This document shows positions 59,936 through 62,249 of a DNA stretch of 64,000 bases, one piece after another. The stretch is from assembly GCF_053078305.1 (NCBI RefSeq), contig NZ_CP166879.1. One strand, given 5' to 3'. Each line of letters begins with the position of its first letter. The stretch's first letter is position 1. Position numbers and translations under genes: made by a program. The notes under the pieces were generated by a model. It had not been told where the DNA came from and did no database searches. It worked only from the letters and a program-made list of their open reading frames with translations.

Positions 59936-59958
59936 AAAAAGGGGCGAAATATCGCCCC
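59936..59958 (-). terminator. intrinsic terminator downstream of yhaI
   Basis: Stem ggggcga / tcgcccc with 4-nt loop; U-run on the minus-strand transcript. Confidence 0.65.
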
Positions 59959-59968
59959 AATTCTAAGA

Positions 59969-60325
59969 TTAATTTGAACCAAACTTCGGATCGTTTCCGT
60001 AACGATTGCTGCCAGAAGTACCTTCTGTGCAGAAAAAAACCAGAAGCACGAGCCAGCCAATAAACGGAACAAAAAAGAGCAAGGCCCAGGCACCTGAACG
60101 GTCGGTATCGTGTAAGCGACGGATAGCAAGCGCAAGGACGGGAAGGAAGGTTGCCAGCAAATAAAGCATAGACAGATATGGAAGCTCCAGACCTAAAATC
60201 AATTGAATGACATTGATAATAGCGCCGACGATGGCGTTAATCAGAGTAAACATCCAGTACTCTTTACGACGTGCGCGACCAGAGAAACCAACATAATTTT
60301 TTAATACGGATAAATACCACTGCAT
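59969..60325 (-). CDS. yhaI: DUF805 inner membrane protein YhaI, 118 aa
   Basis: ORF recognised; paralogous to yhaH. Confidence 0.87.
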   Translation of the reverse strand: MQWYLSVLKNYVGFSGRARRKEYWMFTLINAIVGAIINVIQLILGLELPYLSMLYLLATFLPVLALAIRRLHDTDRSGAWALLFFVPFIGWLVLLVFFCTEGTSGSNRYGNDPKFGSN

Positions 60326-60525
60326 AAAAACATCCCTTTAATTAAAAGTGACGAAAGTCTATTCCGGGTATTGTGTAAATGCTATTCGTATCTTTCTTTT
60401 TCGGATGTTATAAAGGTTTTGATATTTAAGATAAATACATGGTTATTTTTTATAGGTAATTTATATAACGACATTGAAATATTTTAAATAAACATTAGTA
60501 AATTATTCATTCATCAACATGATGA

Positions 60526-60553
60526 TAAAAGCCGGATGAGTCAGACATCCGGC
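60526..60553 (-). terminator. intrinsic terminator downstream of yhaH
   Basis: Perfect 8-bp stem gccggatg / catccggc with 7-nt loop, followed by a U-run on the minus strand. Confidence 0.7.
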
Positions 60554-60566
60554 GAGCAGATTTGTT

Positions 60567-60932
60567 TTAAGGTTCCAGTTTTGGATCAGGTCCAAAGCGG
60601 TTTTCGCCTGGCGTACCCGCCTGGCAGTTAAAGACGATGATAATAAGCCAGCCGATAAACGGGATTAAGAATAGCAGTGCCCACCACGCCGAGCGGTCGG
60701 TGTCGTGCAGGCGGCGGAACTGAACTGCCCACCACGGTAAAAACACCAGAATACCGTAGATTGTCGTCAGGATGCCTTCGCCACCAGCGCGTTGCCAGCC
60801 TAACATTTTATCCAGCAGCCCCAGCACGAACGTAAAGATGATGTTGACCAGAATAAACATCCAGTACTCTTTGCGCCGCGCACGACCCCGGAAACCGACA
60901 TAATTTTTTAGTACTTTCAGATACCAGTCCAT
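60567..60932 (-). CDS. yhaH: DUF805 inner membrane protein YhaH, 121 aa
   Basis: Start set at MDWYLKVLKNYVGF. Confidence 0.87.
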   Translation of the reverse strand: MDWYLKVLKNYVGFRGRARRKEYWMFILVNIIFTFVLGLLDKMLGWQRAGGEGILTTIYGILVFLPWWAVQFRRLHDTDRSAWWALLFLIPFIGWLIIIVFNCQAGTPGENRFGPDPKLEP

Positions 60933-61061
60933 TTTTGCCTCAATTTTGCTCAATCACTTGTTTTTAAAGCAGCAAATTAAGAATAGACGTGAATGAAATG
61001 GCAGTAAATATTATCGCGATGAATTAATAAGGAGCTGTGAAGGATAAGGGCAAGCGCAAAA

Positions 61062-61162
61062 TCGCCAGATGCGCTACGCTTATCTGGCCTGCGCGGCCTT
61101 TGCAACATATTGAATATAAAAGTTTTGTAGGTTTGATAAGGCGTTCATGCCGCATCCGACAT
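61062..61162. repeat. REP-like palindromic element cluster
   Basis: cgccagatgcgctacgcttatctggcctgcgcggcc and gataaggcgttcatgccgcatccgacatg. Confidence 0.65.
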
Positions 61163-61214
61163 GAACAACATGCACTTAGCTAATTATCAGAGGCACCTCG
61201 TAAGGTGCCTTTTT

Positions 61215-62201
61215 TTAACCGAAGCGAACATCTCGTCCATGCGGTTCATCGAGATCCTGCCACGGACCAATTGAAATAATCCCCGTAGGGTTGATGGTCT
61301 TATGACTGCGGAAGTAATGATTACGGATATGATCGAAATTGACTGTTTCGGCAATTCCCGGCATCTGGTAGATATCACGCAGGAAGCCATACAGATTAAG
61401 GTAATCGCTGATGCGGTGCTTATCACACTTGAAGTGGGTCACATACACTGGATCAAAACGGACCAGCGTGGTCCACAGGCGAATATCGGCTTCGGTTAGC
61501 TGGTTGCCGGTCAGGTAACGATGCTGACCTAAAATCTGTTCCAGTCGCGCCAGCGATTCAAACACTTTCTCCACCGCTTCATCGTAGGCTTGCTGGCTGG
61601 TGGCAAAACCAGCTTTATACACGCCGTTGTTAACGGTGTCATAAATCCAGCCGTTAAGTTCGTCAATTTTCGTTTGCAGGGCTGGTGGGTAGTAATCACC
61701 AGCTTTCGCGCCCAGCGCATCAAACGCGGTATTAAACATGCGGATGATTTCTGCTGATTCGTTGCTGACGATGGTGTGGTTCTTTTTGTCCCACAGCACG
61801 GGAACAGTAACTCGTCCGCTGTAGTGTGGATCGGCGTGGAGATAAAGCTGATACAAAAATTCATGTTGATAGAGCGTGTCTCCGGTTGCTCCCGGAAAAC
61901 TGTCATCAAAGGTCCAGCCGTTTTCCAGCATCAGCGGGTTCACTACGGAAACGGAAATAAACGGTTCCAGTCCTTTGAGTTTGCGCATGATCAGCGTGCG
62001 GTGCGCCCACGGGCAGGCGAGTGAAACATAGAGATGATAACGATCTTTCTCTGCAATAAAACCGCCTGTGCCAGTGGGGCCAGGAGCGCCATCGGCAGTG
62101 AGCCAGTTTCGAAATGCGGAAGCTGAACGTTGAAATTTACCGCCGGTAGATTTGGTATCGTACCAGGTGTCATGCCAGACGCCGTCAATCAGTTGACCCA
62201 T
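61215..62201 (-). CDS. yqjG: glutathionyl-hydroquinone reductase YqjG (Xi-class GST), 328 aa
   Basis: Start set at MGQLIDGVWHDTWYD with GGAGGAGAG Shine-Dalgarno. Confidence 0.9.
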   Translation of the reverse strand: MGQLIDGVWHDTWYDTKSTGGKFQRSASAFRNWLTADGAPGPTGTGGFIAEKDRYHLYVSLACPWAHRTLIMRKLKGLEPFISVSVVNPLMLENGWTFDDSFPGATGDTLYQHEFLYQLYLHADPHYSGRVTVPVLWDKKNHTIVSNESAEIIRMFNTAFDALGAKAGDYYPPALQTKIDELNGWIYDTVNNGVYKAGFATSQQAYDEAVEKVFESLARLEQILGQHRYLTGNQLTEADIRLWTTLVRFDPVYVTHFKCDKHRISDYLNLYGFLRDIYQMPGIAETVNFDHIRNHYFRSHKTINPTGIISIGPWQDLDEPHGRDVRFG

Positions 62202-62220: not shown

Positions 62221-62249
62221 AAAAACGAGGAGCTTCCTCCTCGTTTTTT
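62221..62249 (-). terminator. intrinsic terminator downstream of yqjF
   Basis: Stem cgaggag / ctcctcg with 4-nt loop, flanked by A-run and T-run. Confidence 0.7.

Follow-up and report, generated by a model that had tools for sequence, protein, structure and literature searches.

The window analysed here is a stretch of 64,000 nucleotides of E. coli DNA (contig NZ_CP166879.1, assembly GCF_053078305.1), to which the E. coli strain ES5 is 100% identical over 60900-61320, and its orientation is the reverse of that of MG1655. The part considered holds yqjG, which encodes a glutathionyl-hydroquinone reductase and lies on the minus strand at 61215-62201, as given by the list of open reading frames and by the RefSeq annotation of matching E. 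coli records, with its TAA stop codon at 61215-61217 (read from 61217 to 61215). On the minus strand, yqjG is followed by yhaH (60567-60932), which encodes a DUF805 protein; the neighbouring genes are yhaI (59969-60325) and yqjF (from 62271). All four are on the minus strand and co-directional, and the statement in the preliminary description that no plus-strand gene lies upstream of the hairpin discussed below agrees with this, yhaH and yhaI both being minus-strand genes. In MG1655, yqjG spans 3251024-3252010 and yhaH 3252304-3252669, both on the plus strand. A canonical terminator hairpin, found by our terminator scan, follows yhaH at 60531-60553 on the minus strand, and the TRS/Term-seq tables of PMC10687069 place here (MG1655 3252711/2) the first 3' end of the sense strand that has been mapped experimentally beyond yqjG.

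At the end of yqjG lies a GC-rich hairpin that can form in the RNA of either strand. Its plus-strand sequence at 61191-61210 is AGGCACC-TCGTAA-GGTGCCT, and T continues from there to 61216; a hairpin and a run of seven T overlapping the yqjG stop had been described earlier, and both are confirmed at 61191-61216, with a stem that extends to 8 bp. The arms (61191-61198 and 61203-61210) form eight perfect pairs, five of them G-C, around a 4-nt loop (61199-61202), and an alternative fold has a 7-bp stem with a 6-nt loop. The T7 run occupies 61210-61216 on the plus strand and overlaps the stop codon by two bases; its first T (61210) is paired at the base of the stem, and the other six, 61211-61216, are unpaired. 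In the yqjG mRNA, this run becomes an A7 ahead of the hairpin, the base of which stands 4 nt downstream of the stop, so that the earlier reading of an A-run and then a hairpin right after the stop is borne out: the order is stop, A-run, hairpin and then CUGAUAAUUAG, with the U-tract absent. The MG1655 counterpart lies at about 3252015-3252034, and the sequence is identical in K-12. The plus-strand RNA folds at -15.1 kcal/mol (z -3.9, with none of 200 shuffles equally good), and the minus-strand, yqjG-sense RNA at -14.1 kcal/mol (z -3.1).

On the yqjG mRNA, the hairpin is followed by a U-poor spacer, CUCUGAUAAUUAGCUAAGUGCAUG (61167-61190, minus strand), and then by a REP-like element at 61130-61166 on the same strand, which gives a partial match to naRNA4, the REP-derived RNA of Rfam. 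This element has a small hairpin of its own, an inverted repeat with arms at 61143-61152 and 61157-61166. What we take to be a second REP-like element, GCCAGATGCGCTACGCTTATCTGGCCTGC, lies in the opposite orientation at 61064-61095 on the plus strand, as judged by eye against the REP consensus. Together, the two appear to form a BIME-like insert that is absent outside Escherichia, where the hairpin directly adjoins the upstream region of yhaH. Since the hairpin is present in species without REPs, it is older than the REP insertion. A promoter-like element, TTTACT-N17-TATTCT, is found at 60980-61008 on the minus strand and is plausibly the yhaH promoter; elements of the form TT[TG]AC[CTA]-N16-18-TA[TC][TC]CT follow the hairpin in 35 of the 80 species considered below. 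In species without the REP insert, the element (TTTACC-N17-TATTCT) lies about 50 nt past the yqjG stop, and in E. coli it lies 209 nt past the stop because the REP pair was inserted between it and the hairpin. The spacer takes part in a possible long-range pairing with the 3' coding end of yqjG. In the sense RNA, the stem-loop could sit at the top of a long-range stem of about 30 bp, specific to Escherichia, in which the last part of the yqjG coding region would pair with the edge of the REP.

How unusual such a hairpin and T-run are was assessed with a strict motif scan, which required a perfect stem of at least 6 bp with at least four GC pairs, a loop of 3-8 nt and a T-run of at least six. 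Four such motifs are found in the 64-kb window, as compared with about 0.03 per dinucleotide shuffle, and the combination of hairpin and T-run thus exceeds compositional chance. Two of the four sit after long plus-strand open reading frames, the normal arrangement, and the other two are the yqjG 3' hairpin and a hairpin between yqjF and yqjG (about 62225-62249), which can also be read on the plus strand. When the hairpins were scored in the manner of d'Aubenton-Carafa, with modern energy parameters, so that all values should be considered indicative only, the plus-strand reading of the yqjG hairpin obtained +20 to +27 (hairpin -12.6 kcal/mol, six unpaired U), while the yqjG-sense reading, with the tail CUGAUAAU that holds three U in eight positions, obtained -28 to -41. 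The real terminators in the neighbourhood score +35 (yhaI), +18 (yqjF) and +6 (yhaH) on the same indicative scale. Our automated terminator scan passed over the yqjG 3' hairpin; this is probably explained by its longest-stem rule, as a stem of ten pairs, AGAGGCACCU/AGGUGCCUUU, absorbs three of the T and leaves only four T in eight.

To characterize the element outside E. coli, we collected the yqjG locus from representatives of 80 species of Enterobacteriaceae, among them species of Escherichia, Citrobacter, Salmonella, Klebsiella, Kluyvera, Enterobacter, Kosakonia, Raoultella and other genera. A hairpin was counted when it had at least six contiguous pairs, at least four of them GC, and started within 20 nt of the yqjG stop. 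By this definition, 69 of the 80 loci have one, as compared with a mean of 5.5 of 80 for dinucleotide shuffles, 1 of 80 for 45-mers taken at +60 to +105 and 0 of 80 inside the gene. The gap between stop and stem is 3-8 nt in most species. The stems themselves differ widely (GGCACC/GGTGCC, GGCGTCC/GGACGCC, GGGCATC/GATGCCC and GGGCGCG/CGCGCCC, for example), with the 71 loci that have a stem of this kind holding 59 different hairpin sequences, and with four to six pair types at the inner stem positions; selection is on the structure rather than on the sequence. RNAalifold, applied to a MAFFT alignment of 60 species, returned no consensus structure, as varying loop lengths shift the 3' arms out of register. 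Folding of each sequence separately, with controls, was used in its place and gave a median minimum free energy of -15.9 kcal/mol, with z below -2 at 64 of the 80 loci.

The flanking tracts bear on the question of which strand the hairpin serves. On the sense strand, the tail holds at least five T in eight positions in 30 of 68 species hairpins, and a canonical TTTTTT follows the hairpin on the yqjG strand in Enterobacter, Pluralibacter, Yokenella and Lelliottia (in the first three as GGGCATC...GATGCCC TTTTTT). An A-rich upstream side, with at least five A in 8 nt, was found in only 2 of the 68. By this distribution, the stem-loop belongs to the yqjG strand, and the comparative evidence from the 80 species leads us to regard it as an ancestral terminator or 3' stem-loop at the boundary of yqjG and yhaH. 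The element is an ordinary conserved 3' stem-loop of yqjG, previously unannotated and of a well-known kind. A chance inverted repeat beside a chance T-run, functional on neither strand, is hardly credible: the element is indeed short and the T-run is one mutation away from a non-run state, but the persistence of a hairpin in 69 of 80 species while its sequence changes, where shuffles give about 5.5 of 80, together with a z of -3.9 in E. coli, rules out a chance origin for the hairpin, leaving chance for the T-run alone, which is contained in the explanation that we favor below.

The T-run has a different history. In an alignment of the locus (A1), E. coli strains carry T7 or, rarely, T6, and four other Escherichia lineages carry TTTGTCT, TTTGTTT, TTTTACT and TGTGGTT (the last in E. 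albertii). The T7 run is specific to E. coli proper, and it would be reached by one substitution from the TTTGTTT of a sister lineage, in the A-rich context that follows TAA. As the sister lineages of Escherichia that bear the REPs are without T7, the T-run did not arrive with the REP insertion. On the yqjG strand, the branch of Escherichia, Salmonella and Citrobacter has only a partial U-tract (UAUUAAUU), which seems to have decayed further in E. coli, to the tail given above. The REP insertion was considered as the cause of the U-tract loss and rejected, as the tail CTGATAATTAG can be aligned by eye to TATTAATTAAT of Salmonella, in a part that lies upstream of where the REP joins, and as the sister lineages with the REPs have no T7 run. 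Of 5421 complete E. coli genomes, 4332 match the 65-nt segment containing the hairpin at 100% identity, the hairpin has a single place per genome in nearly all genomes (median 1, maximum 2), and all of the sampled variants keep at least T6. In strain KOr024, IS26 has removed the hairpin. In the O157 lineage, one nucleotide of an arm is deleted, which weakens the hairpin of the sense RNA by 5.2 kcal/mol (from -14.1 to -8.9) and that of the plus-strand RNA, where pairing is retained through G.U, by 2.2 kcal/mol (from -15.1 to -12.9).

Further to these analyses, we searched for a plus-strand transcript that the hairpin and T-run might terminate. A scan for sigma-70-like promoters on the plus strand upstream of the hairpin gave none that satisfied its criteria, and in a relaxed scan over 900 nt upstream the best candidate had 8 of 12 matches. 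The RefSeq annotation of MG1655 has no RNA gene between yqjG and yhaH, and Rfam searches over 60300-61500 and 61100-61260 returned only sub-threshold matches. One of these, to the sRNA isrD (RF01388) at 61171-61215, reaches 24.2 bits against a gathering threshold of 37, is carried mainly by the hairpin and the U-run, and was rejected; the partial match to naRNA4, which covers only 61130-61166, was rejected as family membership as well. A plus-strand open reading frame (61037-61183), with its end 8 nt ahead of the hairpin, is uninterrupted in several strains. It was not retained as a gene, since it is translated REP sequence with an N-terminus that varies among strains and with a stop in GPEC60.

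Mapped 3' ends, which the preliminary description had proposed as the check, were taken from published E. coli K-12 data. The complete tables of Adams et al. 2021 (PMC7815308), with curated Term-seq 3' ends of MG1655 in LB at OD 0.4, LB at OD 2.0 and M63, contain no coordinate starting with 32520 and no yqjG or yhaH label; in two of the condition lists, the entry at 3250409 (+, yqjK) is followed by 3255325 and 3270216, respectively, and no 3' end is called anywhere from yqjF to yhaJ. In the TRS study (PMC10687069), the order is yqjK (+, 3250409), yhaH (+, 3252711/2) and yhaJ (-, 3253270), and the hairpin has no entry for either strand in its tables. Thus, neither strand has a 3' end at this position in the two K-12 maps, the outcome by which the preliminary description had said that its reading would be refuted. 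Among the entries listed in the TERMITe and SMRT-Cappable-seq supplements, none is for yqjG or yhaH, and a literature search found no paper that names yqjG together with yhaH. When referring to these results, it should be considered that the two strands are not equally well served by them. That Adams et al. call no 3' end from yqjF to yhaJ suggests that this cluster is poorly expressed in those media, and the null result is therefore weak for the yqjG sense strand; it is, nonetheless, strong evidence against an abundant plus-strand sRNA.

We consider it most probable, at roughly 0.6, that the element is a conserved 3' stem-loop of yqjG that in E. coli chiefly protects the 3' end and terminates weakly, and that the plus-strand T-run is a lineage-specific by-product. 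The stem-loop would mark the boundary between the transcription units of yqjG and yhaH. Several genera have a U-tract directly behind it on the strand of yqjG, which makes it a canonical intrinsic terminator there, and on the E. coli yqjG mRNA it is predicted to be a weak or leaky one, which is the most likely state given that the U-tract is partial in the branch and decayed further in E. coli. Its main role would be to block 3'-to-5' exonucleases, by which the 3' end of the yqjG mRNA would be both set and protected, with the adjacent REP pair as a second barrier of this kind; transcription itself would end further downstream, possibly at the yhaH terminator or, by the action of Rho, within the REP region, which is not translated. 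The T7 run would most likely be a by-product with no dedicated transcript, although it would halt stray antisense transcription entering yqjG. The hairpin and its tracts are themselves established, as are their position, structural conservation and distribution over lineages; that the stem-loop acts as a stabiliser or weak terminator, and that the T-run is a by-product, is inferred.

This reading has precedents. According to Dar and Sorek 2018 (PMC6061677), the steady-state 3' ends of E. coli mRNAs terminated by Rho lie directly past stable stem-loops that have no U-tract, and these stem-loops shield the mRNAs from PNPase and RNase II. In the work of Li et al. 2015 (PMC4824070), repression by the ribosome was nearly complete for a terminator a few bp past a stop codon, and with a stem 4 nt past the yqjG stop, this predicts a leaky element on the sense side. 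A local precedent is offered by yhaJ, the mRNA of which, in our reading of the TRS tables, ends just past a hairpin with an A-run before it and no U-tract after it (59941-59958, shared with the convergent yhaI), which scores -33 on the indicative scale used above. Two observations that count against our reading should also be considered. The Dar and Sorek class was described without upstream A-tracts and the yqjG hairpin has an A7, while the strong plus-strand score of +20 to +27 and the retention of the geometry in almost all sampled E. coli variants count against the by-product view. Against the stabiliser role, moreover, the two K-12 datasets, which are of low power here, hold no yqjG-sense 3' end at the hairpin. 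Of the options listed in the preliminary description, a 3' stabiliser nonetheless fits best, with a stem-loop after the stop in 69 of 80 species. The terminator for an unannotated plus-strand transcript from the REP region, also listed there, finds no counterpart in a promoter beyond 8 of 12 matches, a conserved open reading frame, an annotated RNA or a 3' end in the two K-12 datasets. The remaining option, that of just a bidirectional terminator, does not agree with a T-tract on one side only and with a yqjG-sense side that scores as a non-terminator. Beyond what had been described, the plus-strand T-run is an E. coli-specific novelty, one substitution in the making, on an old sense-strand element.

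The alternative that survives best, although we hold it to be unlikely, is that the E. coli element is a functional antisense insulator, an efficient terminator opposite yqjG that prevents antisense RNA or polymerase collisions while the sense mRNA is still capped by the hairpin. The antisense source would be pervasive transcription, or divergent transcription from the yhaH promoter or the REP region. The plus-strand terminator is predicted to be strong, with an indicative score equal to those of the real neighbours, and strict motifs of this kind are about 100-fold rarer in shuffles; the promoter scan, in turn, offers at most 8 of 12 matches within 900 nt upstream, and no plus-strand 3' end is found in LB at OD 0.4, LB at OD 2.0 or M63 (PMC7815308) or in the TRS tables (PMC10687069). 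The identity of the 65 nt in 4332 of 5421 E. coli genomes, with at least T6 in the sampled variants, speaks for this role. Set against this is the absence of the T-run from every non-coli Escherichia and nearly all other genera, by which any insulator role must be young, and the single substitution that the run needs, directly after TAA in an A-rich context. The hairpin between yqjF and yqjG is likewise readable on the plus strand, and A-rich tracts upstream of terminators are regarded as a mark of bidirectional terminators (PMC12207403), both of which favor insulation. The O157 deletion, which keeps the plus-strand pairing through G.U better than the sense pairing, favors it as well. Such sparing of the plus-strand hairpin is what selection on the plus strand would predict, and it is a single event.

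A distinctly less probable account starts from the same comparisons and supposes that an ancestral sense terminator of yqjG switched polarity in E. coli proper, having lost its sense U-tract and gained one on the opposite strand by point mutation. Under a switch of this kind, yqjG transcription would read through towards yhaH, with the hairpin capping a processed yqjG mRNA, and antisense transcription from the yhaH promoter or the REP region would be efficiently blocked.

The position of the stem might instead be read in terms of translation, with ribosomes stalled at the stop as the means by which the hairpin tunes the termination of yqjG translation or the decay of the mRNA; in one variant, read-through into yhaH might be coupled to yqjG translation. 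With a gap of 4 nt between stop codon and stem, a terminating ribosome must melt the stem, and ribosome stalling at the stop has reportedly been seen with REPs very close to stop codons. The stop-to-stem gap of 3-8 nt is kept in most species, and a ribosome at the stop represses a terminator a few bp downstream (PMC4824070). However, short distances between stop and terminator are common and require no special function, and we consider this account very doubtful.

Still more improbable is a plus-strand sRNA, or the mRNA of a small protein, in the REP region, for which the hairpin and U7 would be the terminator and an Hfq-binding 3' module. Hfq-dependent sRNAs typically end in a hairpin with at least six to seven U, and the plus-strand reading resembles such an end. 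The weak likeness to isrD at 61171-61215 would also speak for an sRNA, but its 24.2 bits lie below the threshold of 37 and the alignment consists mainly of the hairpin and the U-run. The open reading frame at 61037-61183, open in several strains and stopping 8 nt short of the hairpin, would speak for a small protein, but it is a translation of the REPs with a strain-variable N-terminus and is interrupted in GPEC60. No promoter was found, the RefSeq record of MG1655 shows no ncRNA in the interval from yqjG to yhaH, and the two 3'-end datasets, in which the ends of abundant sRNAs are normally easiest to detect, have none here.

For yqjG, the outcome is the gain of a conserved 3' stem-loop and a placed boundary between the yqjG and yhaH transcription units, with little import beyond annotation. 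The more general point is that an orphan terminator geometry on a non-coding strand can come from one substitution beside an existing hairpin and, as one substitution suffices, terminator motifs on non-coding strands should not be counted as evidence of hidden transcripts. If the T-run does act, it would be a small and datable example of antisense-insulating or bidirectional terminators evolving from unidirectional ones.

When compared with known systems, the plus-strand reading has the stem-loop of an intrinsic terminator (eight pairs, a 4-nt loop, -15.1 kcal/mol) and its U-tract (six unpaired T at 61211-61216, indicative score +20 to +27); an upstream co-oriented transcription unit was not found, whether as a gene, a promoter, an RNA or, in the limited conditions covered, a 3' end. 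On the yqjG strand, the GC-rich stem-loop stands just downstream of a gene, as in intrinsic terminators, but the tail has only three U in eight, whereas 30 of 68 other species have the tract, with a full U-tract in the counterparts from Enterobacter, Pluralibacter and Yokenella. In bidirectional terminators, according to the account of Ju, Li and Liu 2019 given in PMC10687069 and to the passages on A-tracts in PMC12207403, an A-tract, a hairpin and a T-tract are combined in such a way that one hairpin can serve both strands, as is illustrated locally by two hairpins, one between yhaI and yhaJ (59941-59958) and one between yqjF and yqjG (about 62225-62249). The yqjG hairpin differs from these in having a T-tract on one side only and in lying between co-directional rather than convergent genes, with no antisense 3' end in the two K-12 datasets. 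With isrD (RF01388), the hairpin region shares a likeness that stays below the gathering threshold (24.2 against 37 bits). The yqjG hairpin adjoins the REP pair within the same 3' UTR, and both could block exonucleases in the manner of REP/BIME 3' stabilisers, although it is not itself a REP, being single-copy in nearly all genomes and older than the REPs, with the REP-derived Rfam match stopping at 61166. The stem-loops of Dar and Sorek (PMC6061677) were described without an upstream A-tract, unlike the yqjG hairpin with its A7, and with an excess of C over G downstream, for which the C/G ratio after yqjG is 1.0-1.3 in the first 100 nt and 2.1-2.6 at 120-230 nt. With this class, the yqjG hairpin shares its stability, its terminator-like size and energy, its place after the end of a gene and its U-poor tail.

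When the yqjG transcript is considered as a whole, the hairpin past its stop codon (61191-61210) may be part of a larger structure. In the minus-strand RNA (yqjG sense), the final ~34 nt of the coding sequence are predicted to be pairable with ~42 nt lying 3' of the hairpin, a partner that comprises the spacer and the edge of the REP-like pair (61149-61252 for the whole pairing). If the end of yqjG does pair downstream in this manner, the hairpin would cap an imperfect stem of ~30 bp that is rich in G.U pairs. The computed duplex energy was -27.9 kcal/mol, as compared to -17.2 +/- 3.1 with shuffled partners, 4/500 of which equalled it, while the same region taken as plus-strand RNA yielded just -14.7. 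The long-range pairing was also found in K-12 and O157 (z -3.6), as well as in E. albertii (z -2.4). For the remaining Escherichia clades, the same duplex comparison gave a weak pairing or none, and species that lack the REP showed none.

A 48-codon plus-strand ORF (61037-61183), seen in the ORF list and the strain comparison, consists wholly of REP sequence. Several strains keep this ORF open, with 65 codons open in K-12, and in strain GPEC60 it is interrupted. A REP-encoded ORF of this type could be mistaken for a small-protein gene.

Sequence inspection and hairpin scans revealed a second hairpin, CGAGGAGgaagCTCCTCG, in the yqjF/yqjG intergenic region (62225-62249). Bordered by A6 and T5/T6, it is terminator-like on both strands, although yqjF and yqjG are both on the minus strand. 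It contains GGAGG, and yqjG starts ~25 nt downstream. A further hairpin, identified by scanning and scoring, is common to the convergent yhaI and yhaJ (59941-59958) and has a T-tract on the yhaI side only; the yhaJ 3' end in the published MG1655 RNA 3'-end lists (position 3253270; PMC10687069) lies immediately past this hairpin, on its U-poor side. The sequence and ORF list also show that yhaI and yhaH, which are tandem DUF805 paralogues, are separated by a long (~240 nt), very AT-rich spacer (60326-60566).

Cross-species comparison showed strong conservation of the yhaH upstream region (60955-61008, minus strand) from E. coli through Klebsiella and Raoultella, with its counterpart in the yqjG loci fetched from other genomes (L011-L086) found ~50-110 nt past the yqjG stop. 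The conserved region contains TTTACC-N17-TATTCT and, after it, a near-palindrome that reads ATCGCTTTAAAAACAAGTGAT in many species. Speculatively, this region could combine a promoter with an operator, at which YhaJ, the LysR regulator encoded next to it, might act.

Finally, in E. coli KOr024 (NZ_CP147099.1), the locus sequence places an IS26 end next to CCTTTTTTTAACC (2437-2510 of the fetched locus). This junction removes the plus-strand 5' arm of the yqjG 3' hairpin, its loop and most of its 3' arm, and the deletion also takes everything from the REPs toward a truncated ptsP. KOr024 is a natural knock-out of both the hairpin and yhaH.
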